A DNA stretch of 64,000 nt from Candidatus Giovannonibacteria bacterium RIFOXYD1_FULL_48_21 (GCA_001778985.1 MFIU01000002.1:139930-203929), one strand, 5' to 3'. Counted from the stretch's first letter, positions 28,290 through 63,364 are shown. The notes: a model not told the origin generated them from the letters alone. Made by a program: numbers and translations.

Positions 28290-29350
28290 TATAGAGAGGA
28301 TGGATAATAGGCGCGGTTCAGCACGCGCATGACCTCGAGACCGCGTTCAAATGAAAGCGGAGAATCTTTAAGCTTGATTTCGCCTGAAAGAAGTTTTTGA
28401 TAATGCAGGGCCTGCCGCCAGAAATCATCCGGCCGTTTTTTGGCAAAAACCTTTTCTACCAAATCTTCACCCTCGACCTGATAACGGACTAAGTCTCCTT
28501 CTGGAACGCCACGCAGATGCCATTCGACAAATCCTTTCTCACCCTGCAACCGCGCCCAGGTTTTGAAAGGATGGGTGAATAAATCCTGAATCACTCGACC
28601 CACTTTCCCTTCCTCGGTCTTAAACAAAAAGGCGATAAGCTCGTCGTATTCAGTTTCCTTCTCCTTTTTCATAGAGAAATCAGTCTTAACTTCTTTGAGC
28701 GCTCCCCAGCCAGCGACTTCGGCCAAGTACTGCCAAAGATGCAAGCCGTGAGAGTTTTCTCCTCCGGCCCCTCCCCCGCGGCGCCAGTAACCGAGGTAGG
28801 TTTCCGCTGGGCCGGAAAGCCAAGGGTGAGCCGCGAAAATAGACCGCCAATCTTCCCTGATTTCAACGTCCAGAGTCAGGATTTCTCCAAAAATTTTCTT
28901 TTTAAGGAGTTCGACTGCGGCTTCAACGCTTTCTGAAACCGCATAAATATATCCGACCGTCACCAAAATTTCCGGATATTTAGCCAAAGATTTTTCGAAT
29001 TCTTTCACTTCGCCGAGGTCAGGAGTCGAAAGAGGTTTTTCCAGATGAAGCAGTTTCGGTTTTTCTTCCAGTGCTTCCAAAGCGAGTTTCATCCTCACAT
29101 CCGGAGGAGTGCCTATCATGATAATGTCAAATCCCCCTTTCGGCTCTTTGCCAGGGGTAAAAAGTTTTATGGAATCGTCCCAAGCGCCATAGCGCTTGGG
29201 ATAGATGTCGTTTTTCATCCGCTCGAGCGCTTTGGGGTCGTTGTCAACCACACTGACTTCCCAGCCAACTCTCCGGCAAGATTGCGCCAGATGATTTCCA
29301 ACTGAACCTGCTCCAAGAATTTTAACTTTCACCCCGTTAGAAGTTTTCAT
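28289..29350 (-). CDS. Gfo/Idh/MocA-family oxidoreductase, copy 2 (near-identical paralog of 24688..25728)
   Basis: About 90% nt identity to copy 1 over several hundred bp at both ends. Start moved from the ORF-track 29488 to the ATG at 29350 (MKTSNGVKVKILGAGS), which aligns with the copy-1 start. Confidence 0.7.
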   Translation of the reverse strand: MKTSNGVKVKILGAGSVGNHLAQSCRRVGWEVSVVDNDPKALERMKNDIYPKRYGAWDDSIKLFTPGKEPKGGFDIIMIGTPPDVRMKLALEALEEKPKLLHLEKPLSTPDLGEVKEFEKSLAKYPEILVTVGYIYAVSESVEAAVELLKKKIFGEILTLDVEIREDWRSIFAAHPWLSGPAETYLGYWRRGGGAGGENSHGLHLWQYLAEVAGWGALKEVKTDFSMKKEKETEYDELIAFLFKTEEGKVGRVIQDLFTHPFKTWARLQGEKGFVEWHLRGVPEGDLVRYQVEGEDLVEKVFAKKRPDDFWRQALHYQKLLSGEIKLKDSPLSFERGLEVMRVLNRAYYPSSL

Positions 29351-30722
29351 AAAGTATTCTCTTAATATAATCCGCGGTTCTTCGGCCGGAAAGGCCGTCG
29401 GTAAATTCGACCTGCTCCTCGACCATCCTTTTTCTCCCCTCCCGATCCAAACTCGGGTCTTCCAAATATCTCCGGACGGCTTCGACAAGTTCTCCCATAT
29501 TCCAAACTCGCTTCACGCCGCCGGAAGCCTCGATGGATTTGTAATGGTCATGCTTCAAAAGCACGGAAACGCTGTGTTTGGGAGGCGTTTGGGGGTCGGC
29601 ATCAAACCTGACGTTGATTACGGGCTTGTCAAAAACCGCGGCATCAATGGAAAGCGTGGACATAGTGTTGATGGTAACATCGCTCCAGTAAAGAGAGTTC
29701 ATCAAGAGCTCAAAATCCTCCGGCGAGAATTCCCAGTCCTTGGTAGACATCTGAATATTTCTCACTGGAAAATATTGGGAGCAGGGCTTGGTGATGGTGA
29801 GATTTTGCGAGGGCCGAAATAATTTTTCATCAATCGGCGGGGTTCCGGGACGATATCTAACTAAAATTTGAGTGTCTTTGGGAAGGCGTCCGTCGTCTAT
29901 GGCGCTCGTAAGCTCATTTATGATTTTAAGGGAAGAAGAAGTATGAGAGTATAGAAACGGGGCGGCTAGAACGATTTTCCGTTCCGGGGGAATGCCCAGC
30001 ATCTTCAAAAATTTCTCCCGAGACTTCAGGGGCGGCTTGAAAAAAATGTCATAGTGCGGAATTCCTGAAACATAGATGTCCTCTTCGGGCATGCCAGCCA
30101 ATCTGACGGCAAGCTCCTTCATGATATGGGTGTGGACAATAAGTTTATCCGGCAAAAGCTGGATTACTCCTTTGGAGGTCAGGTTGTCCCAGGCTCGAAT
30201 CGTCCCCAGGACAAAAAATTTCTTTCTTTTGGCGGCGCGGAGAAAAATCCGGTCCGGAGGAAAAACAATGTCCGGGACAATGACCAAATCCGGCCGATAT
30301 CTCTCCAGAATCTTAACCACCCCGGGATCCAAGGCCACGAATCCGTCCAGAAAGCGGATTATGCTCCGGGGAAATTTAAAACCGGAAAACGCCAGATTGG
30401 CCGCGCGCTTGAGCAGAAATTTTCCGTAGTGCCCGTATTTCAAATAAGTCCACCATTGCTTGAGCCGGACCGAATCGGTATCCAAAAAATTAAAGGCGAT
30501 TGCGCACAAAATTCTTCCGAAGCGGGATTCGGAAACTATCTCCAGGGGCTCGAAAACGACGTTCGGCCTGCCAAACTCTTTTTGGTAGAAAGCGAGCTTG
30601 GAAGGAGGAATCACAATCACGAGCCGCAGGTTTGGCTCGCCGGTCAGCCCGGTATAGATGTAGGTATAAAAAAAATTCTTGGCCCGAATGCCGTTATAGA
30701 TTGGAAGCAGAATTGTTTTCAT
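29337..30722 (-). CDS. TagB/TagF-like (CDP-glycerol glycerophosphotransferase superfamily) GT-B protein, paralog 1 of 5
   Basis: Shares with four other ORFs the C-terminal motifs S..DAA.FDKPVI and DP.LD.EGR......EQ..F.DG.SG.R. Confidence 0.55.
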   Translation of the reverse strand: MKTILLPIYNGIRAKNFFYTYIYTGLTGEPNLRLVIVIPPSKLAFYQKEFGRPNVVFEPLEIVSESRFGRILCAIAFNFLDTDSVRLKQWWTYLKYGHYGKFLLKRAANLAFSGFKFPRSIIRFLDGFVALDPGVVKILERYRPDLVIVPDIVFPPDRIFLRAAKRKKFFVLGTIRAWDNLTSKGVIQLLPDKLIVHTHIMKELAVRLAGMPEEDIYVSGIPHYDIFFKPPLKSREKFLKMLGIPPERKIVLAAPFLYSHTSSSLKIINELTSAIDDGRLPKDTQILVRYRPGTPPIDEKLFRPSQNLTITKPCSQYFPVRNIQMSTKDWEFSPEDFELLMNSLYWSDVTINTMSTLSIDAAVFDKPVINVRFDADPQTPPKHSVSVLLKHDHYKSIEASGGVKRVWNMGELVEAVRRYLEDPSLDREGRKRMVEEQVEFTDGLSGRRTADYIKRILYENF

Positions 30723-30778
30723 ACGGGTCTAAGTTATAAAATTAAAACCTCCGGAAAACAAGTTTCGTTTCTGGGATT

Positions 30779-31705: not shown

Positions 31706-31832
31706 GATTTTCTCCTTCGGATTTTTAGAGTGCGAGATTTCATAAAGGGTGTGTAGCTGAATGATATCAAAGTCAAGAATTTATAAAAACCTCAATAAAA
31801 ATAGACCATCTTTTTACGATCGGAGGGAGTTG

Positions 31833-32425: not shown

Positions 32426-32448
32426 TGATAGAATTATTGAGAGAGTTA

Positions 32449-33678
32449 TTATTTTATATCATGGAAACTTTTTTGCAAAGGAGGATTAACTTCAGCCAAA
32501 ATCTCGGTAATCTTTCGGCCGGCGTCTCCTTGGCCGAATCTCGAATTTGAAGGATAGCGGCCGTGAGCGAGCTGGGACAAGACGCTTTTTTTAATTGCTT
32601 CGAAATCCGCCGGCGCTTCCGTCACGTTTTCTCCCCGCTCCCGATTTTGCTGACGGGAGCCGACCAGCACCGCCGGCGTTCCCAGATACGCCCCCTCGCG
32701 GATGAAACTCGAAGAATTGCCCAGGGCGCAAGCGGCATTGGCCAAGGCCCGATAAAACCTGTCCGGATGAAGCTGCTTGGAGAAATAGACCTCGGCCGGC
32801 TTCGCGTTTTCATACCATTCGGCCAGTGTCCTCCCTACTCCCCTGGAACGCGCGTCAGGATTAGAGCCTATAACCAGAGCCGGCATTTTTAAATCCTCAA
32901 TCACTTTGAGGATTGTTTCGACCAGATTAAGATTTTCTTCCCTGGACTCGGTCGTAACCGGATGGGTAGTCACAAGTAGATAGGGCTTTTTAAGATTAAT
33001 GTATTCCGGAGAGCCGTCTTCAATTTCAGGAGAAAGGTCAATCTCTTTCAGGACATCGATGGATGGAGAACCGACCTTGAAGACAAAACGCGGGTCTTCG
33101 CCGAGCTGTAAAACCCGGCGCCGAGACTCGTCCGTGTTAGTAAAATGAATCTGGGCGAATTTCGTGATGGCGTGCCGAATGGATTCATCAATCGTCCCGG
33201 AAACGTCGCCGGCCTCGTTATGGGCGATGGGAATATTTAGAAAACTGGCGGCAATCGTGATGGCCATCATTTCGAATCGGTCGCCGTCCACAAACACCAG
33301 GTCGGGTTTAAGTTTACGCAAAGTATCCGTTAGGCTTATAATTCCCAATCCCACGGACTTGGCCATGGTAGCCGGAAGGCCGCCGTCCAGAAAGAAAGGA
33401 ACGTTCGCTCCGACCGAAAAACCGTCCGCCTTCATCTTGCGAATCACAAAATCGCCATCAAGCGCCCTTGATACCCGGGCTTTCAGATACCACGGAATAG
33501 CTTTAAGCCAATCTCTGGGCTCGGAGTGCTGCAGATTGGCGAAGAAGTAGCCGCGTGCGGCCTGAACGCCGGTGATGGTCTGGAGTTCGAGCTCGGGGTG
33601 ATTTGTAATCGCTTTCAGCACCGGTCGCAATCTCCCATAATTCGCGCGGTAGAAAATTGGCACTAATATTTTTTTCAT
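32449..33678 (-). CDS. second hydrolysing UDP-sugar 2-epimerase paralog (NeuC/LegG-like) with a ~40-aa insertion
   Basis: Epimerase_2 motifs (HNEAGDVSGTIDESIRHA, GNSSSFIREG). Confidence 0.85.
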   Translation of the reverse strand: MKKILVPIFYRANYGRLRPVLKAITNHPELELQTITGVQAARGYFFANLQHSEPRDWLKAIPWYLKARVSRALDGDFVIRKMKADGFSVGANVPFFLDGGLPATMAKSVGLGIISLTDTLRKLKPDLVFVDGDRFEMMAITIAASFLNIPIAHNEAGDVSGTIDESIRHAITKFAQIHFTNTDESRRRVLQLGEDPRFVFKVGSPSIDVLKEIDLSPEIEDGSPEYINLKKPYLLVTTHPVTTESREENLNLVETILKVIEDLKMPALVIGSNPDARSRGVGRTLAEWYENAKPAEVYFSKQLHPDRFYRALANAACALGNSSSFIREGAYLGTPAVLVGSRQQNRERGENVTEAPADFEAIKKSVLSQLAHGRYPSNSRFGQGDAGRKITEILAEVNPPLQKSFHDIK

Positions 33679-34700
33679 ATTTCTTGAAAATATGCTTCCC
33701 GCCCTCGTCGCAAGCGCGGACTTAGAATCTGAAGCGAGCCGTCCTTGATTTCGAAAAGAGGCTGTTTCCCTCCGGAAATATCGTTGGCATCAAGCCTCGC
33801 AAAAAGAACGGGTTCTTTCAGGGTGCGGTTAAAAGCCTTCTCCATAGTAAACCCGAATTTCATGCCCGCGGTTTTAGCCTTCTGGGCAGCTTCAGATGAA
33901 ACCGTAAAAGTGTGCGGAAAGGAAACCGCGCTAAATTTAGCCCGCGAGTCGCCTGTGACCTGCAACAAGACTCGTTTGGCATTTTTAAACTCGCTTTCCA
34001 TGGCTCTACTATCCAAAAGCGCGATAGGTTTATGCGTGTAGCCGTGCCATCCGAGATAAAAACGTTCGTGCAAACTTGCTGCCTGCTGCTTGGATACGTA
34101 AAAATTCTCACAGAATTTCTCCTCGCTGGCAACCAAAGATTGAAAAATGGAATCTATAATCTTTTCCCGAAGCTCCAAATCCAAAGAGCTCTTGTTGAGT
34201 AAAAACTTAAGGTGCGCCTCCTCCGGGTCGTCATAAGGATAGAGTTTCTCAATCTCGGCCGCGGATACCGGCGCGAAAGAATCAAAATTGAACGGCTTTC
34301 CGGAAAGCAGGGCGTAGTGGCGCCGAACCTCGCTAAAAAACTCGTCTGCCGACAGATGTGCTCGGCACCAATGAACTTTGTGCACGAATAACACCCGCCT
34401 TTCCAGATAAGGAAGGCCGTTAATAAAAAAAATCGCCGGTATCCCCATCTCATCCAAAATAGGCAGGGCCCGCTCATACTGGGACTTGAGCCCGTCGTCA
34501 AAAGTTATGGCGCAGCAATTTTCAGGAAGGGGCCTCTTTTTTTCCAGCGCCTCCAGAATTTCCCGCTGGCCGACGAATTTAAAAAATTTTCCGAGCTCCC
34601 TCAATTGCAGGCGAAACCTAGCGGGCGAAACCGGATAGATTCCTCTGGGGTACCTGTCTTCCTCGTCTATATAATGATAGTTAACTGCCAGAAAGTTCAT
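33675..34700 (-). CDS. polysaccharide deacetylase (CE4/NodB-like)
   Basis: ITFDDGLKSQYE...GIPAIFF NodB motifs 1-2. Confidence 0.7.
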   Translation of the reverse strand: MNFLAVNYHYIDEEDRYPRGIYPVSPARFRLQLRELGKFFKFVGQREILEALEKKRPLPENCCAITFDDGLKSQYERALPILDEMGIPAIFFINGLPYLERRVLFVHKVHWCRAHLSADEFFSEVRRHYALLSGKPFNFDSFAPVSAAEIEKLYPYDDPEEAHLKFLLNKSSLDLELREKIIDSIFQSLVASEEKFCENFYVSKQQAASLHERFYLGWHGYTHKPIALLDSRAMESEFKNAKRVLLQVTGDSRAKFSAVSFPHTFTVSSEAAQKAKTAGMKFGFTMEKAFNRTLKEPVLFARLDANDISGGKQPLFEIKDGSLQILSPRLRRGREAYFQEI

Positions 34701-35373
34701 TGGAAAGAAAAGATAATACCTCTTCGGCGACTTCTTCCGGCTCTCGAGCCATCGTCTTATAAATGGACGGCAAGTTTTTAATCAGGTCGGTATTCACCGA
34801 GCCCGGAGAAACTATATTCACTCTGATTCCTTTTCCGCTTAATTCTGACGCGAGCGCCCGGCTTAAACCCACCAGACCATATTTTGCAGAAATATAACCG
34901 CTCAGGCCGGACGGCGGGGCGCCAACGGTAACGTCGCTCGCGATATTAATAATGTCCCCGGAGCGTTTTTCAAGCATAAAAGGCAGAACCGCTTTGATGG
35001 CGTTGTAAGCGCCGTGAATCTGAACTTCCAGATGCCGCTCAAAATCATCCCACCCCAAATCAGCAAAACGTTTGTAATCAATAGACACTCCGGCGTTGTT
35101 AATGAGGGCGTCAATCCTGCCGAATTTGTTCAAAACAGCTTCGACCATTTCCCGAACCTCTTCGGCTTTGGTTACGTCGGCTTTGAAAGTCAGGGCTTCT
35201 CCTCCGAATTTCTGTATTTCTTTTTCAACCTTTTCCGCCTCTATGCCGTTTTTAAGATAATTTATCGCCACCCGAGCGCCGTGTCGGGCCGAAGCCAGCG
35301 CGATGGCCTTGCCGAGGCCGCGGCTCGCGCCAGTAATCAAAACAACTTTTCCGTCCAAGTTTTTCATATCCAT
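34681..35373 (-). CDS. 3-oxoacyl-ACP reductase-like SDR (FabG-like)
   Basis: ITGASRGLG, NNAG, YISAKYG motifs. Confidence 0.85.
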   Translation of the reverse strand: MDMKNLDGKVVLITGASRGLGKAIALASARHGARVAINYLKNGIEAEKVEKEIQKFGGEALTFKADVTKAEEVREMVEAVLNKFGRIDALINNAGVSIDYKRFADLGWDDFERHLEVQIHGAYNAIKAVLPFMLEKRSGDIINIASDVTVGAPPSGLSGYISAKYGLVGLSRALASELSGKGIRVNIVSPGSVNTDLIKNLPSIYKTMAREPEEVAEEVLSFLSNELSGS

Positions 35374-35374
35374 C

Positions 35375-35782
35375 TTATATAATTTTTACCAAAGCCCTGC
35401 CCTCTACCGCCACTCGGCCTTCGGAATCAAAAATCTCCATCTTGATTTCCACAATCTTTGTTGATTCAGATTTGCTGACCACGGTTCCTTTTACCTTAAA
35501 CTTTTCCCCCGCCAAAATCGGCCGATGAAAATTCAAGTTTTGAGAAAGATACAAGGAATCTTTTCCGGGAATAACCATCCCGACTAAATAAGAAAATTTA
35601 GAAGCGACGAGAAGGCCGTGCGCCAGGCGTCCCTTATAGCCCTTGGTTCGGGCAAATCCATCGTCCAGGTGCAGGGGACTCTGGTCTCCGGAGAGTTTCG
35701 CGAAAGCCTTAATATCTTCTTCGGAAAAACTGCACAAAACCGGCTCGGTTTCATATCCTACGTTAATGTCTTCAAATTTCAT
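35375..35782 (-). CDS. MaoC-like hot-dog fold dehydratase/enoyl hydratase
   Basis: 135-aa hot-dog domain with the conserved SGDQSPLHLD motif. Confidence 0.8.
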   Translation of the reverse strand: MKFEDINVGYETEPVLCSFSEEDIKAFAKLSGDQSPLHLDDGFARTKGYKGRLAHGLLVASKFSYLVGMVIPGKDSLYLSQNLNFHRPILAGEKFKVKGTVVSKSESTKIVEIKMEIFDSEGRVAVEGRALVKII

Positions 35783-35791
35783 AAATAAAAT

Positions 35792-36754
35792 TTAATAGGC
35801 GCGGTCGCGATCTCCGTCGGCCTTAACCACGAACCAATCCATGGGCGGCTCTTGGTCTGGGCGGTCAACGTGTTTATACGTGAAGTTGAGGGTCAGCCTT
35901 TTTCTATCAACCGGCAAAATAAAAATCGGCGGGTCCGTACTGACTTTACGATTCGCCGCGTGAAAACCGGCTTCCTGAAAGGCTTCACCATACCTTGATG
36001 GAAAAGAAAAAAAATCAATAAAATCCGCTTTAGCGTCTTTGGCAAAGTTAACTGCCTTTTTTACGAGCCTTGCCGCGGCTTCCGGGCCGCCGATAAGGTC
36101 GACAATGCGGCAAGCCGTAAGCTCCTCCCCTTTCTCGATTCTTAAAATGATATAACCCTCTAACCCGCCAAAAATCTGATATTTAATTTTTGGATTATCA
36201 ATAAAACGCCAATTCAGATAAGCCGCCGAACGGTCAACCGTCGCGGCATAATCATGGCTCAACGTCTCCCAAGCCTTGTCCCACTCCGGGCCAAACTTAT
36301 CTATGGCGGCAATATCCGAGTCCTCGGCAAATCCGCGGTTTTCCTTTAAGTCCCTCACCCAGCGCGTCATCAGAGCTTCCTCGCTCCAGCCGCAAAATTT
36401 AAAGACGGGCGCGGAGGGAGGACTGAAACCCGTGGTATAGAGAATATCAAAATATTTCTCGGCTTCGCGAACCAAGAGCACTCCGGCTCCGCGCGAACGT
36501 AAATCTTCGAACACAATCAGACAGCCCAGAAACGCCGCGTTGAACAGTCTTCCGCGGACTCGAAATTTATACCCAATCAGCCCCAAGTGCCCGACGATCT
36601 CGCTATTTTTTTCGAGCAGTAAATTGGAATAACCAGGAAATTGCCATTTCAAATATTCTTTCTCGCTCATGATGTGGCCGGGTTTATAAACTTTCTTAAA
36701 AAAATCTATCAAGGCCGGAATGTCATTTTCCTTAGCTAGTCTTACGCTGTACAT
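35792..36754 (-). CDS. GNAT-family acyltransferase with C-terminal extension
   Basis: N-terminal GNAT pattern (LIVFEDLRSRGAGVLLV, acyl-CoA/ACP binding loop). Confidence 0.5.
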   Translation of the reverse strand: MYSVRLAKENDIPALIDFFKKVYKPGHIMSEKEYLKWQFPGYSNLLLEKNSEIVGHLGLIGYKFRVRGRLFNAAFLGCLIVFEDLRSRGAGVLLVREAEKYFDILYTTGFSPPSAPVFKFCGWSEEALMTRWVRDLKENRGFAEDSDIAAIDKFGPEWDKAWETLSHDYAATVDRSAAYLNWRFIDNPKIKYQIFGGLEGYIILRIEKGEELTACRIVDLIGGPEAAARLVKKAVNFAKDAKADFIDFFSFPSRYGEAFQEAGFHAANRKVSTDPPIFILPVDRKRLTLNFTYKHVDRPDQEPPMDWFVVKADGDRDRAY

Positions 36755-36758
36755 AGCT

Positions 36759-37004
36759 CTAAAGTTTTATCCCCTTATTGACGAGGTAGCGTTTAATATC
36801 CCCGAGATTTTTTGCTTCCATGGTCTCGTCGACTGTGAACTGAACTTTAAATTCTTTCTCCAGTTCGGAGATAAAAATAAGGTAATTCATGGAGTCCCAG
36901 TCCGGAATCGTGCTTGGCGACATTTCATCATTAATTTCCTGGGCGGAAACTTTGAAAATTTTTTGGATGATGGGTATCAGCTTATCCATATCGTTTTTAT
37001 CCAA
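36759..37004 (-). CDS. acyl carrier protein
   Basis: 81 aa with phosphopantetheine attachment motif DWDSMNYLIFISELEKEF (DSx core). Confidence 0.8.
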   Translation of the reverse strand: MDKNDMDKLIPIIQKIFKVSAQEINDEMSPSTIPDWDSMNYLIFISELEKEFKVQFTVDETMEAKNLGDIKRYLVNKGIKL

Positions 37005-38023
37005 TCCGGCTTCAGGTTCGCGTTTTTCAAATCAAAACGGCCGCCTTCGAAATACTTTTCCAAAAACTCTTTGGCCGGCTGGTTCTTTTCCGTCTCTTTG
37101 AATAAAATTCTTAGCTCTTTGGCATTATTCTCTCTGGCTCTTTGGGCCATAAAATGTAAAAATGCTTCCTCGATTCCCCGCCCCAAGGCTCGGCAACTCG
37201 CGAGCAAGGACTCTATCAGCCATTCTTCCGAATCCTTATTAATCGAGGCAAAAGCTATCACGCCGTAATCTCCGAATTTATCGCGCGCGGCCGCGTGAAA
37301 TATGGAATGGGACGGTTCAGCGATCCGCCGCGAAATTTCATTCTCTGACATGGGTTTTTTATTCGTGTTAAATTGATTGGTTTTCTCGGTAAGTTGCGCC
37401 AACCTCGAGAGGCAGGAGGAATCGTCTTGGTAGCAATGGACTTCTATCTCCAAGCTTTTCAGGAAATCTTCTTTAGCCCCGTAATTATTTTCCGCGGCCT
37501 TGCGCAGACGTTCCGTAACGTATAAATTGCCGCGCATTTTGTCTTCATCAGTAGTGACCCCGCCCTTGAAATACGGCAAAGTCAATAAAAATTTTGCGTA
37601 TTTTTCGGGGTCCTGGGGCAAATCGGGGGTTTCTACTTCCGGCAAGGCATTTCGCATAACGGCGCGGTTTACCGGGTCATCGTCCAAAAACACCAGAGAG
37701 TCCAAACCGATATTCAGCTCCTTCGCGATTTCGCGCATGTTGTCCGGTTTCTCATTCCAATTAATGCGGAGGGACGCGAAATTATTTTCCTTCAAAACCA
37801 TATTCGGGTGGCGGCGAATCACCGCCATGGCGTCTTCATAATTATTCCGGCTGTTGAGCGCTAAAATAATTCCGCGATTATGCAAATCCAGAATGGCCTG
37901 CTGAAAAGCGACAAAGCCGCGGCCGGATGCATCCCAGCCCAGCTTGATGCCGTCTAATCCCTCCTCGCCCACCACCCCTCCCCACAGGGTGTTATCTAAA
38001 TCAAGAACTAAACATTTTTTCAT
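36977..38023 (-). CDS. FkbH-like HAD-IIIC domain protein (ACP-loading phosphatase/acyltransferase type)
   Basis: LVLDLDNTLWGG HAD motif I, LALNSRNN, LFLDD motifs, plus a C-terminal acyltransferase-like half typical of FkbH. Confidence 0.65.
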   Translation of the reverse strand: MKKCLVLDLDNTLWGGVVGEEGLDGIKLGWDASGRGFVAFQQAILDLHNRGIILALNSRNNYEDAMAVIRRHPNMVLKENNFASLRINWNEKPDNMREIAKELNIGLDSLVFLDDDPVNRAVMRNALPEVETPDLPQDPEKYAKFLLTLPYFKGGVTTDEDKMRGNLYVTERLRKAAENNYGAKEDFLKSLEIEVHCYQDDSSCLSRLAQLTEKTNQFNTNKKPMSENEISRRIAEPSHSIFHAAARDKFGDYGVIAFASINKDSEEWLIESLLASCRALGRGIEEAFLHFMAQRARENNAKELRILFKETEKNQPAKEFLEKYFEGGRFDLKNANLKPDWIKTIWIS

Positions 38024-38027
38024 ATTA

Positions 38028-38378
38028 TCATATAGTTAAAATTACAAACGCCAGCGCCCAATCTTTCGCGTGCGATAAGGACGCAAAAATTTTCAAATCC
38101 TGACATCCATTAATCCGCAGGCGCGGCGTGCCGGATTTATAAATAATTTCAATGTTTTTTAAATCTGTGGCGCGGCCCAGCGCTTTAAGGCCGGCTTCTT
38201 TGGCGCAAAATCTGGCGGCAAAATGCGGATAGGGGTCGGCTTTCGCCGTGCAGTACTCCAACTCCTTTTTTGTAAATATCTTCCGGTAGAAAGGCTTATT
38301 TTCTTTATACGGCAGGTTCCTGAAACGAGCAATGCTTTCGATATCGGCGCCAATCCCAACAATAACCATATTAAACAA
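38028..38378 (-). CDS. acpS: holo-ACP synthase (4'-phosphopantetheinyl transferase)
   Basis: IVGIGADIESIARF and FAAKEAGLKALG signatures. Confidence 0.8.
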   Translation of the reverse strand: MFNMVIVGIGADIESIARFRNLPYKENKPFYRKIFTKKELEYCTAKADPYPHFAARFCAKEAGLKALGRATDLKNIEIIYKSGTPRLRINGCQDLKIFASLSHAKDWALAFVILTI

Positions 38379-39870: not shown

Positions 39871-41442
39871 TCACACTCCGCCGGTCAAGTCCTGCTCCTC
39901 AATGTCCTCCAGCTGGTGCTGGCCCCAGTTTAAAAGATAGGTTTTTCGCTCATCTCTCGGCAACTTGGCGATGGAAGGGTCAAGATAAAAAGAGTCTTCT
40001 TTATGGTTGGCAGTGGAAATTTCCTCAAAGACCGCGCCAGCGTCGGTTCCGAAGCTATGCACCACTCCTCTTGGAATCCAGAGCATGTCTCCGGGATATA
40101 AAATTTTTTTCCGTCCCTGAACTTCCACTTCCAAAACTCCGGAAAGAACCTGAAAAGTTTCATCTTTAAGTTTATGGTAATGCTCGGGATTGAATTGACC
40201 CGAAAGTTGAACCAAAATTTTCTTCGCATACTCCCGGTTAAAGCATTCTATGATAGCCGCGCCCACCTCTTGAAACCGCTCGATGCCGTAATGGTGCGAA
40301 AGCTCCACGGAAAAATCATGGCCGACCGGAACTTTCGCCTCGTTCAGCATCCCTTTGATGGCGTGGATGGAATGATAGACAATTTCTTTTTTAGATTTCG
40401 TGTCGGGCCGGAGCGAGGCCGAAAGAGCTTCGTTGGGATGGTAATCCCGGTCGGCCGCGAGTCCGGCCAGAAAGCGTCCCGAAACAAGCTGCCCTTCCTG
40501 CAAAGGCATGGCGAAAAATACGTCTTCATAATTCAGGGTTTCTCCGGCTTTTATCTCCCGCTTGGTCCAGACTCCTCTCACAAAAGTTCTTAAATCCTCG
40601 GCCTCTTTTTCTGGAATTTCCCGCTCGCCCCTTTCCCCGCAGGCCTCGACGGCTTCCCTCCAAGCTCCGAGCCAGGCGCGCACTTGACCGGGATTGGCGG
40701 AATAAGCGTTCAATTTTATCTGGTCAGTTTCAAGGCCCACGTGTTTTTCAAAAATCCTGGCGCCTTTGGCGTAAGCCAGGCGAATGGCATTCAGATTTGA
40801 AGGTTCCTCGTGAGTGGAAAACCCGATGACGATTCCGGGGTAGCGATTTTTCAAAATTTCAATCTGGTTTAGAGAAAACTTGTCGTTCGGGGTGGGATAG
40901 ATGGAAACGCAGTGCAAAAGCGCGAAATGAACGCCCCGCTTCTGGAAGAAGCTCACGATTTTATCGATGTCGCGGATGACGAGTCCGCCGACGGAAACGA
41001 TAACCGGTTTTCCGGTCTGACTCGCCCGCTCCAGCAACGGCCAATCTTGATTGGAAGGAGAACCGATTTTAATCACTCCAACCCCCAATCTTTCAATCTT
41101 ATCCACCGAGGGTTCGTCAAACGGGGTCGCGACGGTCAAAAGCCCCTCGTTCTTAATCTCGCTCGTCAACCGAGAAAATTCTTCTTCAGAAAGGCGGGTT
41201 TCCAAAAACCGCTTCATATAGTGGCTGTTGGAAAATTTTTCATGTTCGGGGTGAATGATGGCGTCCAAATCGCGAAATTGAAGCTTGGCGGCCGCTCGGA
41301 TTTTAAATTCCCGGGCGATCTCCCCCATTTCGCGAATTATCCGGAGTCCATGCTCTAAAGAGCCCTGATGGTTGTTGGCGAGCTCAAAAATGAATAAATT
41401 TTCGAAATCGAATTTTCGCTCGTTTCTCATTGTGGTCCGCAT
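39871..41442 (-). CDS. NeuB-family nonulosonic acid synthase fused to a C-terminal cupin (PMI/sugar-isomerase-like) domain
   Basis: N-terminal NeuB TIM barrel (FIFELANNHQGS...KLQ) and SAF region; last ~120 aa carry a cupin_2 motif HYHKLKDETFQVLSGVLEVEVQG...PGDMLWIPRGVVHSF. Confidence 0.75.
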   Translation of the reverse strand: MRTTMRNERKFDFENLFIFELANNHQGSLEHGLRIIREMGEIAREFKIRAAAKLQFRDLDAIIHPEHEKFSNSHYMKRFLETRLSEEEFSRLTSEIKNEGLLTVATPFDEPSVDKIERLGVGVIKIGSPSNQDWPLLERASQTGKPVIVSVGGLVIRDIDKIVSFFQKRGVHFALLHCVSIYPTPNDKFSLNQIEILKNRYPGIVIGFSTHEEPSNLNAIRLAYAKGARIFEKHVGLETDQIKLNAYSANPGQVRAWLGAWREAVEACGERGEREIPEKEAEDLRTFVRGVWTKREIKAGETLNYEDVFFAMPLQEGQLVSGRFLAGLAADRDYHPNEALSASLRPDTKSKKEIVYHSIHAIKGMLNEAKVPVGHDFSVELSHHYGIERFQEVGAAIIECFNREYAKKILVQLSGQFNPEHYHKLKDETFQVLSGVLEVEVQGRKKILYPGDMLWIPRGVVHSFGTDAGAVFEEISTANHKEDSFYLDPSIAKLPRDERKTYLLNWGQHQLEDIEEQDLTGGV

Positions 41443-44173: not shown

Positions 44174-44935
44174 GTGAATACAGTAGTAATCGCAACGACG
44201 ACCTTTTACAAGTCAAGAAAGGATTATCGGTTCCCTTGTGCGGATCGCATGGTTAAAAAAGCGATCGCGGACGGACATATCGTAATCATCGTTGATGGCT
44301 CGCCAAACCCGGAGATCAAAGAATATTTCCTCTCGCTCGGCGCCATGGTATACGACGAGACCATGAAAGGCATCGGCCCATCGCGGCGCGAACTGTACAA
44401 TCACATTCGGCTATTCAGAGTCCGGCACACAGCCGCTCCGGAGATAATCCAATGGCTCGAGCCAGAGAAAGACGACCTGATACCGTTCGTTCCGCAAATC
44501 ATCGAACCGATTAAACAAGGGAAGGCAAAAATCGTTGTCCCGCGCCGGACACCCGCAGCTTGGGAATCTTACCCCAAATTCCAGCGGGCATCTGAACGGA
44601 CAGCTAACATGGCCTACAAGTTCGCTACAGGGCTCGACGTAGACATTTTCTTCGGGCCGGTCGCATTTCGCTGCGACATGCTTCCTTATTTTCTTAACTG
44701 CAACCCGACAGAATTCGGCGCGGCGGACAACTATATTCAGCACTATGCACCGGTCTTTGCCAATCGGGACTTCCACAGAGTTGCTTCGGTCGAAATTGAT
44801 TTCCGCTACCCTCCGGGACAGCGGGAAGCGGAGGAAGGTATCGATCTCCGAGCTATGGTCGAGCGGCGTAACGAGCAGCTTGAAACGCTCGTTGACGGCT
44901 ATTTCAAATTCAGCCGCCATCTCGGCCTCCGCTAA
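44174..44935 (+). CDS. hypothetical GT-A-like (nucleotide-diphospho-sugar transferase fold) protein, GC-rich, own promoter and terminator
   Basis: VVIATTTFYKS...IVIIVDGSPNPE resembles GT-A beta-strand/DxD-like segments; composition differs from neighbours. Confidence 0.4.
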   Translation: MNTVVIATTTFYKSRKDYRFPCADRMVKKAIADGHIVIIVDGSPNPEIKEYFLSLGAMVYDETMKGIGPSRRELYNHIRLFRVRHTAAPEIIQWLEPEKDDLIPFVPQIIEPIKQGKAKIVVPRRTPAAWESYPKFQRASERTANMAYKFATGLDVDIFFGPVAFRCDMLPYFLNCNPTEFGAADNYIQHYAPVFANRDFHRVASVEIDFRYPPGQREAEEGIDLRAMVERRNEQLETLVDGYFKFSRHLGLR

Positions 44936-48893: not shown

Positions 48894-50723
48894 TTACACT
48901 ATTTTATTTATCTTGTAAAAATAAGAGTCTTTGGCTTTCAGAAGTTCTTGGGGCGGGCCTTCTTCCTGAACCCGTCCTTCTTGAAGCACTAAAAGTCTGT
49001 CCGCTTTCAGGATGGTGGAAACGCGATGGGCTATTGCCATAATAGTAACATCTCCTTTTAAACGCTCCAGAGCTTTCTGAATCAGGGCTTCAGATTCGGC
49101 ATCCAGAGCGCTCGTGGCTTCGTCTAAAATTAAAATGGCCGGTTTTCGCGCCAAGGCCCGCGCCAAAGCAATTCTCTGTTTTTCGCCCCCGGAAAGCCTG
49201 ACGCCCCGCTCGCCCAAAACGGTGTTAAAACCATTTTCCAACTTCCCAATAAATTCATAAATATTCGCCAGTTTGGCCGCGCGCTCTGTATCAGCTTGGG
49301 TTATGCTTTCGTCATAAAACTTTATATTTTGGGCCACCGTGTCATTCAGCAAAAAAATATCCTGCGAAACGTATCCGATATTCCGGCGCCATTCGCTTAA
49401 TTTAATTTCTCTTAGGTCAACTCCGTCCAAGAGAATCTCTCCGGATTGCGGCTGGAAAAGCCGAAGCAGTAAATCAACCACCGTGGTTTTTCCGGCGCCG
49501 GAAGGGCCGATGATCCCGATGAATTCTCCTCTTTTTATCTCAAAGCTTACCTCTTTCAAAACAGGCGTCCTCGCATCGTAAGAGAATCTGACGTCTTTAA
49601 ATTCCAATTTACTTTCAAGAGAGAAATCTCGCACGCCCGCATCTTGCTCCTGATTCTTCTCAATCTTATTCTCTAGAGAAACCACGTTAACTAAATATGG
49701 AATGAAATCGTTGACGGTGTGAATGGATTTTTGGGCGGTGTTTACGTGAATAAATATGCGCTGAATTAGATAAACCGTGGCAGCGAAAATAGCCAAATTA
49801 AAGCCGGGTTGAGCGTAGGAAATAGCAAATACAATAATAATAAATAAAATGCTCAGGGGCGACACAAGCGACCCGAAAATATTCTTCACGACAGCTTGAC
49901 GCAAGGTAATTTCCCGAACCTTTCTAAAAAATTCCCTCCCTCTATCGGCCACGCTTCTTTCCGCGCCGGCGACCTTAATGGTTTTTATTCCCGAAACATG
50001 CTCGTTGATGTGGTGCGCAATGTCTTTGTTAAACACCGTCTGCCATTTGGTATAAAGCCTGGTTCTTTGCATAAAAAACTGCGCAATCACAAAAATGGCC
50101 AAACCAACAGACAGGGTGATAAGCGCGATGCGATAAGAAATACTGATTGCCACCACGGCATAGACCGCCAGCATGCTTAGATCCAAAATAAGAGAGATTA
50201 ACTCCCCCATTAATTTGGCGGACATCCGGATATCCAGCATCAAAGTATTTTCCAGATGCCCAATTTTTTGTTTTAAAAGGTAGGGCCAATCGGCAGCGAG
50301 CGCCTTCTGGTAAAGCCGATTCCTAGTTTCAAATTCGAAAGAGGTGCCGACACTGGTGCCAATATAAGCAAATAAAACAGACAAACCAGCTTTGGCGGCA
50401 AAGAAAATCGGTACCAGGGTCAAAAGCCAAACCATGTCATAATTAACTTCCCCCAGCCAGTTTTTTAAAAAAACAACAAAAAACTCCGGCCGCAAATTAA
50501 CCAAATAGGCAAAAAATGATTTTATAATCCCGGAGAGAGTATCCGTCTCCAGCACGCTTTCTCCCACCACAATGGAAAAAATAGGAATCAGCATGCTGAT
50601 GCCGATTGATTCCAAAAAACCGCTCAAGAGCCCGAGCGCGGCCAAAAGCAGAATATAAAATTTATAGCCGCCGAAAAGGCGGCCAAAAAGATTTAGGGCA
50701 AACTTAACCCGTCTGCGAAGCAT
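48894..50723 (-). CDS. ABC exporter, fused permease-ATPase (MsbA/PglK-like)
   Basis: 6-TM domain followed by Walker A GPSGAGKTT, signature LSGGEKQRIALARAL, Walker B ILILDEATSALD. Confidence 0.9.
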   Translation of the reverse strand: MLRRRVKFALNLFGRLFGGYKFYILLLAALGLLSGFLESIGISMLIPIFSIVVGESVLETDTLSGIIKSFFAYLVNLRPEFFVVFLKNWLGEVNYDMVWLLTLVPIFFAAKAGLSVLFAYIGTSVGTSFEFETRNRLYQKALAADWPYLLKQKIGHLENTLMLDIRMSAKLMGELISLILDLSMLAVYAVVAISISYRIALITLSVGLAIFVIAQFFMQRTRLYTKWQTVFNKDIAHHINEHVSGIKTIKVAGAERSVADRGREFFRKVREITLRQAVVKNIFGSLVSPLSILFIIIVFAISYAQPGFNLAIFAATVYLIQRIFIHVNTAQKSIHTVNDFIPYLVNVVSLENKIEKNQEQDAGVRDFSLESKLEFKDVRFSYDARTPVLKEVSFEIKRGEFIGIIGPSGAGKTTVVDLLLRLFQPQSGEILLDGVDLREIKLSEWRRNIGYVSQDIFLLNDTVAQNIKFYDESITQADTERAAKLANIYEFIGKLENGFNTVLGERGVRLSGGEKQRIALARALARKPAILILDEATSALDAESEALIQKALERLKGDVTIMAIAHRVSTILKADRLLVLQEGRVQEEGPPQELLKAKDSYFYKINKIV

Positions 50724-51929: not shown

Positions 51930-53411
51930 ATGGCAAATCGCACCGTAATCTATACGGCAATATTCGGCAGCTACGATGAGTTACAAGAACCTGCGGCATT
52001 GCCGCCGGATTGCGATTTTATATGTTTTACCGATAAGCCCCAAAAATCAAAACACTGGCAAATTCGAATCATGGGAATGCCCGTGCCGGGCGACTTAACC
52101 CGCTCCAACCGCCGCATTAAGATGTTAGCGCACGAATATTTTCCGGAATACAAATACAGCGTGTATGTTGACGGCAATGTGCTCGTGCGCGGAGACGTAA
52201 ACGACCTCATTCGCGATTATCTCGCGAAGACAAACATGGCGCTGTATCGCCATGACAGCCGAGATTGCATCTATGACGAGGCGGAAGCCATTATTAAACT
52301 AGGTAAAGAGAAGGGGCGTTGGCAAGACGACCCTTTGGTCATCGAACGGCAGATGGCGCGCTACCGCGCCGAAAGATACCCCCCGCATAACGGGCTCGGT
52401 ACCACTTTGATACTGCTTAGGCGTCACAACGAACCGGACGTGCGGCAAGTTATGGAGGCATGGTGGAACATAGAGAGAGGCGAAAGCAAGCGCGACCAGC
52501 TTTCTTTTAACTACGCGGCCTGGAAACACAATTTTGCTTTTTCGTATATTTCAGGATACTCGCGCGACAACCCTTACTTTCTTCGCCATAGAGGCCATCA
52601 CAAGCCGCCCCAAAAAGGAATCAAGTCGTATTTAAAACGCGTCATCAGCGCCATCCGTCAGCGGGTGCGCTTTTGGAGCACGTACGGATTCCGGTTTTCC
52701 TGTCCATTCTGCGGATGGCGGGCGCAAAAGTTCTACACGCTTGGCCTCACTCACGCGGTGCTTGCGGAAAAGCAAGTGATTGGCGCCGGCAAACGCCAAA
52801 ACGCCAAATGTCCGAAATGCGGCTCCAAAGAACGAGAACGGCTCATATATCTTTATCTCAAACAATATGGTTGGTTCAATGTTGAAAAGCGCCGCGTGCT
52901 CCATGTGGCGCCTGAACGAAACCTTAGCCAGGCGCTTCAAGCAAAATACGGAGAATCGTACGTAAACACCAACTATAATCCGAAAAAAAATACATCAATT
53001 CACGCCGATATTCAGGCACTCCCCTTTCCAGATCAGTCATTTGATCTCATTATCTGCAGCCACGTGCTTGAGCATGTGGAAGACGACGCTCTAGCTATGC
53101 GAGAATTTTATCGCGTTTTAAAGACGCGTGGCCTCGCAATACTTCCAGTTCCATTTTCTCCCATGTTTAAAGAAACGCTTGAGGACGGTTCCGTTACCTC
53201 GCCGGAGGAGCGCGCACGAATTTTCGGACAAGAAGACCATGTTCGGCTCTATGGTACCGACTACCTGGGGCGGCTTCAAAACGCCGGCTTTAAAGCCTGC
53301 GCGCTTTTGCCGGAGCAATTTCTGACTTCAGGAGAAATCAAAAAAGCCGCGCTTAATCCGCGAGAGCCGCTCTTCCTTGCCGCTCGCGAAAAAAATCCAT
53401 GTCAGAGATGA
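51930..53411 (+). CDS. fusion of a DUF616 (TOD1/MUCI70-like putative glycosyltransferase) domain with a zinc-ribbon class-I SAM methyltransferase
   Basis: N-terminal VIYTAIFGSYDEL...DFICFTD DUF616 motifs; CPFCG...CPKCG zinc ribbon; C-terminal DLIICSHVLEHVEDD Methyltransf_11 motif; GC-rich. Confidence 0.65.
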   Translation: MANRTVIYTAIFGSYDELQEPAALPPDCDFICFTDKPQKSKHWQIRIMGMPVPGDLTRSNRRIKMLAHEYFPEYKYSVYVDGNVLVRGDVNDLIRDYLAKTNMALYRHDSRDCIYDEAEAIIKLGKEKGRWQDDPLVIERQMARYRAERYPPHNGLGTTLILLRRHNEPDVRQVMEAWWNIERGESKRDQLSFNYAAWKHNFAFSYISGYSRDNPYFLRHRGHHKPPQKGIKSYLKRVISAIRQRVRFWSTYGFRFSCPFCGWRAQKFYTLGLTHAVLAEKQVIGAGKRQNAKCPKCGSKERERLIYLYLKQYGWFNVEKRRVLHVAPERNLSQALQAKYGESYVNTNYNPKKNTSIHADIQALPFPDQSFDLIICSHVLEHVEDDALAMREFYRVLKTRGLAILPVPFSPMFKETLEDGSVTSPEERARIFGQEDHVRLYGTDYLGRLQNAGFKACALLPEQFLTSGEIKKAALNPREPLFLAAREKNPCQR

Positions 53412-55340: not shown

Positions 55341-55344
55341 ATTT

Positions 55345-60634: not shown

Positions 60635-60635
60635 T

Positions 60636-62015: not shown

Positions 62016-63364
62016 ATTTTAAGAAAATCGATGAGCTCCCGTGCTACTCTTTCGCTCGCCCGGCCGTCCGAGAGCGAAAACCATTTTTTGCGGATTTCAG
62101 CTCTCCCCTCTTTATGAAGCGCGGGGTTTTGAAAATAACTTTCGACCGCTTTTAAAAATTCTTCCCTGGTGTCCGCGTACCACACCCCTTTTGTTTCCAA
62201 AAGTTTATGGATGTGTTCCAGCAAAAAACCCCAGCCTTTCTGATAGATATTCCTGGGAGTGGGATAAACATCGGCCACGATTACCGGTTTATCCAGGAGC
62301 GCGGCATCCAGACAAACCGAGGTTGGTCCGGTTACCACCACGTTCGAATAATACAGCTCATCAATAAAATTATCGTCATCTTCTTTTCTAATCACAAACT
62401 CTCCCGGCCTTGAACCGAAGCGAAAGCCGGGCTTATCGAATGAAATTTTGCTCGGCCATTTTTCTCCCTCGAGCAGTTTCACGTCTTCGCCTGGAGGATA
62501 TCGAACCAGAATATTGGCATCCGCCTCGCTTAATATTTTTAAAACATTCAAATCAAGGTCGTTGTGTTTAATAATTTTGTCTCCGCCCGGCGCGAAGAGA
62601 ATCAGTTTCTTTCGAGGGTCAAGCTTAAAATGAGAAAAAAATTCCGCCCGGCTTCGAATGGGGCCCTTGAGATATCTATCGTAATGGGGGTGCCCGGTCA
62701 GGACGATTTTTTCTTCCGGATAATAGTGGAGTTTTAGAGTTTCTTTTTTAAGCTCGGGTGAGCCGCAAAGAAGTTTATCCGGGAAAACCCGCAGCATCTG
62801 TTGAGTGGGATTATCCCAAGAACGCCACATTCCCAAGATGGGAATACCCAGACGGCGAGCATCCTGCATCAAAGCCACGTCGTTTTCATTATGGATGTCG
62901 GTGGAGAAAACAGCCGCGGGCTTATATTTCTCAAAAAGAGGATAGAAAAGGCCTTTCGGAGAAAATTTAAGGTCTAAGGAGCGAACGAGTTTCTGGACTG
63001 AAAAAGAGCGGCCGAAAAAACCCGCCGAGCCCGAGAGTAAAAAATACCAAAGTTTTCGGTCCCAATAATATTTCCACCGGCGCTTAGCTCGGGTGGTGCC
63101 GGTATTAAAGAAGGTTCGCGAAAAACGTTTGAAAAAAAGTCCGGTCCAGGTTTTGGAAGGCTGATAGGTTTTAAAACCCTCAATAAGCACGTTGCCTCCG
63201 CTAGCTGGCGGACCAAAATTTTCTTCAAAATAAGAAACTTTGTAATCCGGGACAAGAATAACCAGTCTTAAATCCTGCCGGGACTTAAGGATTGAAAGAA
63301 CGGGAGTGGCCAAAATATTTCTAGAAATATGGGCATGAAAGCTGGTAATGAAAAGGGTGCGCAT
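62012..63364 (-). CDS. TagB/TagF-like GT-B protein, paralog 5 of 5
   Basis: CLDAALLDKPVIV and NPALHKEGRAEIRKKWFSLSDGRASERVAREL motifs. Confidence 0.55.
   Translation of the reverse strand: MRTLFITSFHAHISRNILATPVLSILKSRQDLRLVILVPDYKVSYFEENFGPPASGGNVLIEGFKTYQPSKTWTGLFFKRFSRTFFNTGTTRAKRRWKYYWDRKLWYFLLSGSAGFFGRSFSVQKLVRSLDLKFSPKGLFYPLFEKYKPAAVFSTDIHNENDVALMQDARRLGIPILGMWRSWDNPTQQMLRVFPDKLLCGSPELKKETLKLHYYPEEKIVLTGHPHYDRYLKGPIRSRAEFFSHFKLDPRKKLILFAPGGDKIIKHNDLDLNVLKILSEADANILVRYPPGEDVKLLEGEKWPSKISFDKPGFRFGSRPGEFVIRKEDDDNFIDELYYSNVVVTGPTSVCLDAALLDKPVIVADVYPTPRNIYQKGWGFLLEHIHKLLETKGVWYADTREEFLKAVESYFQNPALHKEGRAEIRKKWFSLSDGRASERVARELIDFLKI

Follow-up and report, generated by a model that had tools for sequence, protein, structure and literature searches.

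To our knowledge, the transferases for pseudaminic acid (Pse), legionaminic acid (Leg), and other nonulosonates represent the least known step of bacterial glycosylation with sialic-acid-like sugars, and few have been identified: Maf, FlmG, KpsS1 (GT118), and the enzymes of Tannerella forsythia. The latter are the one genetically studied case through which TagB-like nonulosonate transferases are already known: BFO_1060, Tanf_01245, and TFUB4_00887 are TagB-domain proteins of 442–445 amino acids (aa) encoded just downstream of the loci for cytidine monophosphate (CMP)-Pse or CMP-Leg; when these genes are deleted, the S-layer O-glycan loses its terminal Pse or Leg derivative, and there is no cross-complementation (PMC5420450). 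A caution comes from Bacillus subtilis SpsB, a TagB-domain protein of a Leg locus that is dispensable for Leg transfer (PMC7439481). In the searchable literature, PF04464-type enzymes are tied to nonulosonates only in the T. forsythia and B. subtilis work, and no paper links the Candidate Phyla Radiation (CPR)/Patescibacteria with nonulosonic acids. Here, we describe five TagB/TagF-like proteins, P1–P5, encoded in a 64,000-nucleotide stretch of DNA (MFIU01000002.1:139930-203929; the window) from Candidatus Giovannonibacteria bacterium RIFOXYD1_FULL_48_21, an uncultured member of the CPR/Patescibacteria. Because these proteins have lost the catalytic histidines of TagF and their genes lie beside genes for sialic-acid-like sugars, we predict that P1–P5 are of TagF/TagB-type descent and are probably monotopic CMP-(non)ulosonate-dependent glycosyltransferases (GTs; Pse/Leg/Neu/Kdn-type, i.e., including donors of the neuraminic acid and deaminated neuraminic acid kinds) that build a multi-nonulosonate glycan.

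P1–P5 resemble the T. forsythia enzymes in length (450–473 versus 442–445 aa), in possessing a TagB/GT-B domain and no transmembrane segment, and in their position beside CMP-nonulosonate genes: P1 and P2 abut CMP-synthetase and NeuB genes. However, the function of the T. forsythia proteins was assigned by knockout and complementation, whereas the family described here is known from sequence alone, and the HP motif reported for the T. forsythia enzymes is kept, among P1–P5, only in P2.

The preliminary description of this DNA had proposed a five-member paralogous family, and all five open reading frames (ORFs) exist as it placed them (Table 1): P1–P5 are full-length paralogs, with similarity far beyond chance, that align end to end at 25–36% identity with 34 invariant columns and match one another in pairwise BLASTP at E values from 1e-26 to 4e-87. 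Both C-terminal blocks that it had singled out are real, S..DAA.FDKP(V/L)I at P2 358–372 and (N/D)P.L..EGR...F.DG.S(G/S).R at P2 424–450, while P1, P2, and P4 follow its N-terminal MKTI pattern closely and P3 and P5 more loosely. PF04464 (Glyphos_transf, TagB/TagF), the first profile that it had named, matches every paralog (29.7–54.6 bits) above the gathering score of 22.1, mostly over profile positions 136–366, which make up the C-terminal half. Proteins identical to those of the window are found on Rifle groundwater metagenome scaffolds and in the metagenome-assembled genome (MAG) GCA_003510385.1; one of them carries the label Candidatus Giovannonibacteria.

How much of the TagF active site do these proteins retain? 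The only solved relatives detected by sequence, TarL and the TagF-like capsule polymerase Cps3D, match over the C-terminal domain alone. There, GxPxxD (P2 G224–D229; GVPRTD in TarL), an SS..[D/E] helix (P2 S358/D363; SSLIYE in TarL), and a terminal DG.S.ER (P2 D444–R450; DGRSSER in TarL) are common to both sides, motifs that establish, as far as sequence can, the homology of the C-terminal Rossmann domain with the CMP-binding half of TarL. The TarL cryo-EM structure places at the active site two invariant histidines that are essential in TagB, TagF, and TarL: H300, which follows W299 and strand β15, acts as the base, and H433, which follows β19, touches the α-phosphate (PMC10901376). With the base histidine (TagF H444, equivalent to TarL W299-H300) as the criterion, and residue conservation counted in an alignment of 286 family sequences, a different picture emerges. 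In P2, strand 174–178, three before the first strand of the C-domain, is followed by W182-D183; D183 is present in 286/286 and W182 in 280/286 sequences, and P1–P5 all have Trp-Asp. Counted back from the GxPxxD linker, the strands of P2 fall in the register of β15 to β19 in TarL; because of this strand order and the shared Trp, Trp-Asp would correspond to TarL Trp-His, and we infer that it replaces the catalytic Trp-His of TagF.

The second histidine is also poorly conserved. HMMER aligns the family's ilvRyyP with TarL LFKMHP, and the residue at the H433 position is distributed as R83/P79/Q61/H40/Y14; the HP motif occurs in ~14% of members and, within P1–P5, only P2 keeps the histidine (H295). 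By contrast, R293 of P2, two residues upstream of this position and aligned with TarL K431, is invariant (286/286). The arginine of PT(F/W)R has no conserved counterpart at P2 259–269 in the same 286 sequences, and the TarL ‘fr’ falls into insert states against the family profile. Thus, by the refuting test that the preliminary description had itself set, the active site that a TagF-like assignment would imply is not kept in any of the five, and the branch of the preliminary description that foresaw phosphodiester-linked, teichoic-like products is therefore weakened. TagF, TagB, TarF, and TarL share with the family PF04464, the GT-B fold, the CMP-binding C-terminal domain, a monotopic character conferred by basic amphipathic helices, and CMP as the (here predicted) leaving group; the family differs in a donor-polyol loop that is ~17 residues shorter after the base and in its link to neuB, neuC, and CMP-synthetase genes rather than to tagD or tarIJ.

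An AlphaFold2 model of P2 built with 72 homologs (predicted local distance difference test score, pLDDT, 93.3; predicted template modeling score, pTM, 0.92) contains two complete Rossmann-like domains and a helical insertion, approximately residues 66–136, in the N-terminal domain. Searched against the PDB with Foldseek, it matches GT-B enzymes, including TarL (8va1) and TagF (3l7k), with a probability of 1.00, and in this model P2 has a GT-B fold; UDP-N-acetylglucosamine (UDP-GlcNAc) 2-epimerases, MshA, TarL, and TagF rank about equally (template modeling, TM, scores of ~0.45–0.66), pointing to GT-B without discrimination. The earlier call of TagB/TagF-like GT-B proteins therefore stands at the superfamily level, through PF04464 and the modeled fold, and fails at the TagF active site. 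The ~70-residue insertion (66–136 in P2) has 11–17 Lys and Arg versus 2–4 Asp and Glu, and about half of it is hydrophobic or aromatic. It is basic, amphipathic, and aromatic-rich; this composition, together with the TagF/TarL precedent, suggests that the enzyme is monotopic and attached to the membrane through the insertion.

Among NCBIfam models, the best match of all five paralogs is NF046086, the BFO_1060 family glycosyltransferase (43.5–58.4 bits), and it spans the Trp-Asp region; TarL, TarF, and TarB models score only 12–32 bits on the same proteins. In controls, staphylococcal TarL and a TagF-like protein from a CPR genome reach 90–1040 bits on the TarL/TarF/TarB models and do not match NF046086. 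The latter control (locus L084, 16620–17825, minus strand) is a canonical TagF/TarF-like protein, with WHG, PTFR, and 131 bits on the TarF model, encoded near family members; therefore, CPR bacteria carry both the classical and the Trp-Asp types. SpsB and the TagB-like proteins of Bacillales Pse loci are likewise of the PF04464 type and are encoded next to Leg or Pse genes; the Priestia plasmid protein beside pseB/pseC (WP_308355422) has NF046086 and TIGR04396 as its best matches, but Priestia proteins differ from P1–P5 in keeping both histidines (QHG, KPHP).

Other nonulosonate and capsule transferases leave no such trace. None of P1–P5 matches a sialyltransferase Pfam model (GT38, GT42, GT52, GT80) at E ≤ 1, and their N-terminal domains lack the D/E-D/E-G motif, so membership in these families, three of which (GT38, GT52, and GT80) the preliminary description had thought worth a profile check, was rejected. 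Its analogy with KpsC/KpsS found no sequence support either: PF05159 (Capsule_synth) matches none of the five at E ≤ 1, and membership in that group was likewise rejected. KpsS/KpsC (GT107), WbbB (GT99), KpsS1 (GT118), and KrkA (GT140) are retaining enzymes with CMP-Kdo (3-deoxy-manno-octulosonic acid) or CMP-Pse donors, a modified GT-B fold, and carboxylate catalytic residues (PMC12887879). Their N-terminal Rossmann domain is reduced and an α-helical subdomain arises from the linker, whereas the P2 model has two complete Rossmann domains, and its additional helices form an insertion in the N-domain; dual-module architecture, as in KpsC, is nevertheless a point of likeness. Indeed, metagenomic tandem members of ~900 aa carry two modules (P0241, P0243, P0244, P0250, and P0252). 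Other members are fused to a polysaccharide deacetylase (P0261) or a methyltransferase (P0305), partners that fit glycan modification and do not identify the donor.

What surrounds these genes in other genomes? In an exhaustive profile search with clustering at 50% identity, 2,216 clusters had E ≤ 1e-30 and 5,581 had E ≤ 1e-10. The family occurs chiefly in Patescibacteria, and one of its branches is proteobacterial. When GTDB genomes, one for each species, were scanned with a profile of the P1+P2 subgroup, 208 relatives were found, and the best 80 matches define 79 distinct loci that are, because this profile was used, biased toward SWD[KN]-motif proteins. Nearly all are labelled as Patescibacteria-type MAGs; three labelled Bdellovibrionales or Gammaproteobacteria are probably mislabelled. 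When window proteins were used as probes on six-frame ORFs within 10 kb, a CMP-synthetase homolog was found in 54 of the 79 loci, a NeuC-like protein in 49, and NeuB in 44; restricting the set to the 35 loci whose ±10 kb flanks are complete gives 31, 27, and 29, respectively. A family gene overlaps a NeuB or synthetase gene, or lies ≤13 bp away from one, in 14 loci. DegT and ABC exporter genes are each present in 4/79 loci, and neither an initiating transferase nor TarI/TarJ in any (0/79). Nonulosonate genes lie within 5 kb of 26/31 P5-type, 6/8 P4-type, 70/108 P2-type, and 9/16 P1-type genes. The association extends beyond Patescibacteria: a protein encoded on a Rhizobium plasmid belongs to the family over its full length (hhalign probability 99.9), carries SWD and RCHP, and sits after neuB-family, neuC, and acylneuraminate cytidylyltransferase genes, and its relatives in Polaromonas and in a Rickettsiales MAG occur in NeuB/Epimerase_2/CTP_transf_3 clusters; these members are annotated as ‘hypothetical’ or generically. 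The linkage to CMP-nonulosonate biosynthesis is thus tight and cross-phylum. Together with NF046086 as the best NCBIfam match, this neighborhood strengthens the idea, already raised in the preliminary description, that the proteins transfer CMP-activated ulosonic acids.

The same description had read the five copies as a five-fold expansion, which is misleading. The nearest relatives of P1, P2, P4, and P5 in other genomes are 50–69% identical to them, versus 24–36% among the paralogs themselves, and a recent lineage-specific expansion was rejected on these values; for P3, the exception, the nearest relative beyond near-identical strains is at 36%. Because P1, P2, P4, and P5 are closer to proteins of other genomes than to each other, sequence comparison identifies the five as ancient, diverged orthogroups gathered in one locus. 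Multi-copy loci are usual, with 2–4 family copies in 52 of the 79 related loci, and the number of copies does not correlate with the number of CMP-synthetase genes per locus in this set. Old orthogroups would fit different donor, acceptor, or linkage specificities rather than recent amplification.

How might such an enzyme work? In GT-B sialyltransferases, a carboxylate in the N-terminal domain is the general base, and a His or another basic residue is positioned at the CMP phosphate (in part after Freiberger 2007, as cited in PMC5420450). GT80 (PmST1), GT52, and GT38 enzymes would thus resemble the family in the proposed chemistry, i.e., a CMP-nonulosonate donor, an N-domain carboxylate base, and a CMP phosphate contacted by His or another basic residue, but differ from it in sequence and in their D/E-D/E-G motif. 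In the model that we favor, the C-terminal Rossmann domain would bind the cytidine nucleotide as in TarL, and the invariant Asp (D183 in P2) would take over from the TagF histidine the role of general base and activate the hydroxyl of the acceptor, much as Asp or Glu does in GT-B sialyltransferases; the invariant R293, aided in P2 by H295, would handle the CMP phosphate and stabilize the departing CMP. The insertion (P2 66–136) may anchor the enzyme at the cytoplasmic face of the membrane, where it would act on a lipid-linked glycan; the acceptor would be an undecaprenyl-linked glycan begun by the Bac_transf enzyme of the locus. If each paralog has its own donor, acceptor, or linkage specificity, the five, together with three NeuB homologs, two NeuC, two CMP-synthetases, and an FkbH-acyl carrier protein (ACP) module, could produce a glycan with several different acidic sugars; the ABC transporter may export this glycan, and the Wzy_C-TPR protein may attach it.

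In a broader and more tentative interpretation, to which we give slightly less than even weight, P1–P5 belong to a large unnamed GT family in which a TagF-type phosphotransferase scaffold has become a CMP-nonulosonate glycosyltransferase through exchange of the catalytic base from His to Asp and the loss of the second His and of the Arg, and their multiplicity (2–5 copies per locus, tandem fusions) would mean that the ultra-small CPR bacteria wear glycan coats with several different sialic-acid-like sugars. By sequence, the family stands as a branch of its own, unnamed and much larger than the T. forsythia case: it scores under the BFO_1060 cut-off, has its own insertion, and shows an invariant Asp where TagF has its histidine. 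The functional assignment is a prediction, well supported and testable, rather than a demonstrated function. Its thousands of members, the confident model of its structure, and the clear difference in catalytic residues from its phosphotransferase ancestors make the family a source of concrete candidates for biochemistry and glyco-engineering, and it may present a natural case of a phosphoryl-transfer active site turned to glycosyl transfer. The locus also indicates that a CPR bacterium gives >50 kb to a multi-nonulosonate surface glycan (CPR genomes are small; one of the related loci lies on a complete Campbellbacteria chromosome of 753 kb), which bears on how episymbionts present themselves to hosts and phages.

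Several observations weigh against the assignment of P1–P5 as nonulosonate transferases. The NF046086 scores of P1–P5 are far under the 200-bit cut-off, so the five are not members of the proven T. forsythia family. In the window, P3–P5 lie ≥17 kb from the nearest NeuB or synthetase gene, amid methyltransferase and deoxyhexose genes. The equivalence of Trp-Asp and Trp-His comes from strand order and the Trp, not from residue-level superposition, and profile alignments of the N-terminal domain are unreliable: when a 72-sequence family profile was compared by hhalign with TarL, with a 15-sequence TarL/TagF profile, and with the CPR TagF-like protein, only the C-terminal domain aligned confidently, whereas the N-terminal domain aligned with near-zero confidence and at odds with secondary structure. 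In permissive BLAST of TagF N-domain fragments against the 286 family sequences, a His fell on the Asp of Trp-Asp in only 47/330 non-significant high-scoring segment pairs, a result that carries no weight either way. An AlphaFold2 model of TarL from a shallow alignment reached a pLDDT of 64, with residues 299–366 at <50; the search for TarL homologs yielded only sequences ≥64% identical, nearly all staphylococcal, too narrow a set for a TagF profile. As to the missing cytidine diphosphate (CDP) pathway, the preliminary description rightly noted the absence of CDP-glycerol or CDP-ribitol genes: no TagD, TarI, or TarJ gene was detected in the window by Pfam context or by tblastn (E ≤ 1, spurious matches aside; TarI and TarJ queries from a staphylococcal plasmid), a result that holds for these 64 kb only, the rest of the genome not having been searched. 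Finally, a TagD-like gene is present inside the nonulosonate module in 3/79 related loci, all from CPR, between the CMP-synthetase and NeuB-cupin genes (L031 6263–6730, L058 3082–3606, L063 15484–15972); a CDP-activated unit could come from this small cytidylyltransferase, the chief point left over in favor of phosphotransferases.

Could P1–P5 then be genuine TagF/TagB-type phosphotransferases, which use CDP-glycerol, CDP-ribitol, or another CDP-unit made elsewhere in the genome to build a teichoic-like or phosphodiester polymer, with nonulosonates as acceptors or neighbors? All five do pass the PF04464 gathering score, the C-terminal domain and its DG.S.ER are common with TarL, canonical TagF-like proteins exist in CPR (L084), and these three TagD-like genes stand amid nonulosonate genes; in addition, an Asp is able, in principle, to serve as the base in phosphoryl transfer. 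We nonetheless hold this alternative to be decidedly unlikely: neither of the histidines essential in TagB, TagF, and TarL is conserved and the PT(F/W)R Arg is missing; TarF/TarL models that give 90–130 bits with canonical TagF-like proteins stay at 12–32 bits here; 64 kb of glycan genes hold no TagD, TarI, or TarJ and the related loci no TarI/TarJ; and the family is tied to neuB, neuC, and CMP-synthetase genes across phyla. An alternative of a different kind, also unlikely in our estimate, is that the five are ordinary GT-B transferases for nucleoside diphosphate (NDP)-sugars (UDP-, GDP-, or dTDP-hexoses, deoxyhexoses, amino sugars), which would keep company with nonulosonate genes simply by sharing a big locus. 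The window has many short-chain dehydrogenase/reductase (SDR), DegT, and RmlC-like genes but few other glycosyltransferases (three of the GT2 type), P3–P5 lie amid such genes, and Foldseek places generic GT-B enzymes as high as TarL and TagF. However, the only significant sequence relatives are the CMP-releasing TagF family and the BFO_1060 group, and a shared locus does not explain why CMP-synthetase, NeuB, and NeuC recur in 54, 44, and 49 of the 79 loci while DegT (4), ABC exporter (4), and initiating transferase (0) genes do not, nor why P5- and P4-type orthologs elsewhere lie ≤5 kb from nonulosonate genes in 26/31 and 6/8 cases.

That the proteins are not transferases at all, but GT-B sugar-nucleotide epimerases or hydrolases akin to UDP-GlcNAc 2-epimerase, is highly improbable, even though these epimerases are the top Foldseek matches in the PDB (E ~1e-12, TM ~0.53–0.66): their lead over TarL and TagF is small and is due to the shared GT-B fold. 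PF02350 (UDP-GlcNAc 2-epimerase) matches P2 only, at 10.7 bits and E 0.22 against a gathering score of 30.6, as compared to PF04464 above threshold in all five; genuine NeuC genes are already present twice in the window; and a basic membrane-binding insertion is typical of transferases that act on lipids.

The predicted nonulosonate transferases lie in one mostly co-directional glycan locus that, by Pfam and NCBIfam profile matches, occupies nearly all of the window from ~8 kb to 64 kb (Table 1). It holds three NeuB homologs, two NeuC-type hydrolysing UDP-GlcNAc 2-epimerases, both above the TIGR03568 cut-off, and two PseF-like CMP-ulosonate synthetases, along with several SDR epimerase/dehydratases, two DegT aminotransferases, an RmlC-like isomerase, methyltransferases, three GT2-type transferases, and NDP-deoxyhexose genes. 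The nonulosonate and acyl-ACP genes that the preliminary description had listed as neighbors were all recovered by profiles (NeuB, NeuC, PseF-like, FkbH, ACP). P2 follows the NeuB-cupin gene at a distance of 120 bp, the acylation module comes 1 bp downstream of P2, and P5-P4-methyltransferase-methyltransferase-P3-GT2 form a tightly packed run. The ABC exporter is a candidate flippase for a lipid-linked glycan, and the Wzy_C-TPR protein a candidate ligase or O-oligosaccharyltransferase.

Table 1. Family paralogs and neighboring glycan genes, with positions counted from the first nucleotide of the window.
Feature	Position	Strand	Length	Remark
P1	29337-30722	minus	461 aa	family paralog
P2	38371-39750	minus	459 aa	family paralog with the best TagF-family score; sole one with the HP histidine (H295)
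P3	57801-59222	minus	473 aa	most divergent paralog
P4	60636-62015	minus	459 aa	in tandem with P5, 4-bp overlap
P5	62012-63364	minus	450 aa	family paralog
NeuB homolog with C-terminal cupin fusion	39871-41442	minus	523 aa	immediately upstream of P2
GFO/IDH/MocA oxidoreductase	28289-29350	minus		overlaps P1 by 14 bp
PseF-like CMP-ulosonate synthetase	27579-28289	minus		overlaps the oxidoreductase gene
HAD phosphatase	26941-27582	minus		end of the run 26941-29350, translationally coupled downstream of P1
Second nonulosonate module	15437-20985	minus		comprises the next five entries
PseF-like synthetase	15437-16159	minus		second nonulosonate module
NeuB	16811-17833	minus		second nonulosonate module
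PfkB-like kinase	17817-18722	minus		second nonulosonate module; no NCBIfam match
NeuC	18728-19897	minus		second nonulosonate module
NeuB	19894-20985	minus		second nonulosonate module
N-acyl/modification module	32449-38378	minus		also polysaccharide deacetylase, ketoreductase, MaoC dehydratase, GNAT
NeuC	32449-33678	minus		N-acyl/modification module
ACP	36759-36989	minus	76 aa	N-acyl/modification module
FkbH-domain protein	36977-38023	minus		312 bits on TIGR01686, above cut-off
4'-Phosphopantetheinyl transferase	38028-38378	minus		N-acyl/modification module
ABC_membrane+ABC_tran exporter	48894-50723	minus	609 aa	
Wzy_C + TPR protein	10573-12792	minus	739 aa	O-antigen ligase/PglL-like
Bac_transf initiating phosphoglycosyl transferase	8228-8824	plus	198 aa	

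The donor-making genes have some unusual features. The acylation stretch at 33675–38378 (minus) probably encodes a glyceryl- or hydroxyacyl-ACP route for N-acylation of a nonulosonate; Pse of T. forsythia bears an N-glyceroyl group. The cupin part of the NeuB-cupin protein matches Cupin_2, with a faint likeness to lyxose/mannose-6-phosphate isomerases, and the fusion recurs in other CPR genomes (L031 6770–8323, L058 3643–5205, L063 15982–17547, L081 5746–7377) as part of a conserved module whose other members are a HAD phosphatase, a PseF-like CMP-synthetase, and a GFO/IDH/MocA oxidoreductase. As speculation only, such a module would fit a phosphorylated Kdn-type route with a sugar-phosphate isomerase, a 9-phosphate synthase, a phosphatase, and a CMP-synthetase. 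At 16811–20985 (minus), two NeuB homologs flank NeuC and the PfkB-like kinase; a PfkB-like kinase in a nonulosonate module, with a HAD phosphatase elsewhere, recalls the animal N-acetylmannosamine-6-phosphate/N-acetylneuraminic acid-9-phosphate route. A 650-aa transketolase/1-deoxy-D-xylulose-5-phosphate synthase-like enzyme is encoded within the nonulosonate region, at 21941–23893 (minus), beside SDR and GFO/IDH/MocA oxidoreductases, and its homologs are present in 4/79 loci.

Homologs of the Wzy_C-TPR protein are found at the edge of 16/79 related loci; in a bacterium that presumably has no outer membrane, this protein may be a protein O-oligosaccharyltransferase or a cell-wall ligase. Between its gene and the nonulosonate module, a 215-aa ORF (14097–14744, minus) weakly matches Y1_Tnp (IS200-like transposase) and occupies the same place on a second metagenome contig (L008). 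Among the few plus-strand genes of the locus, 51930–53411 encodes a 493-aa protein that combines a TOD1/MUCI70 domain (PF04765), known mostly from plants, with a class I methyltransferase. Five ORFs have no Pfam match at E ≤ 0.1 (47164–48882, 12869–13981, and 16247–16732, minus; 25828–26904 and 44174–44935, plus), and one more, 9875–10501 (minus), has none at E ≤ 0.01; the six matchless ORFs span 161–572 aa, and the longest (47164–48882) directly follows the ABC exporter.

The contig DOMN01000004.1 of GCA_003510385.1 (L002) starts at a point corresponding to 46–49 kb of the window, with an 89-aa mannose-6-phosphate isomerase/cupin fragment followed by a 354-aa SDR where the window has a 339-aa SDR, which suggests that strains differ here or that the assembly breaks within the locus. 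Outside the glycan locus, positions 1–8000 of the window encode a PIG-L deacetylase, a WbqC-like protein, a GH18 glycosidase, a GT2, SecA (4478–6928), a pyruvoyl-dependent arginine decarboxylase, and a ribosome hibernation factor.

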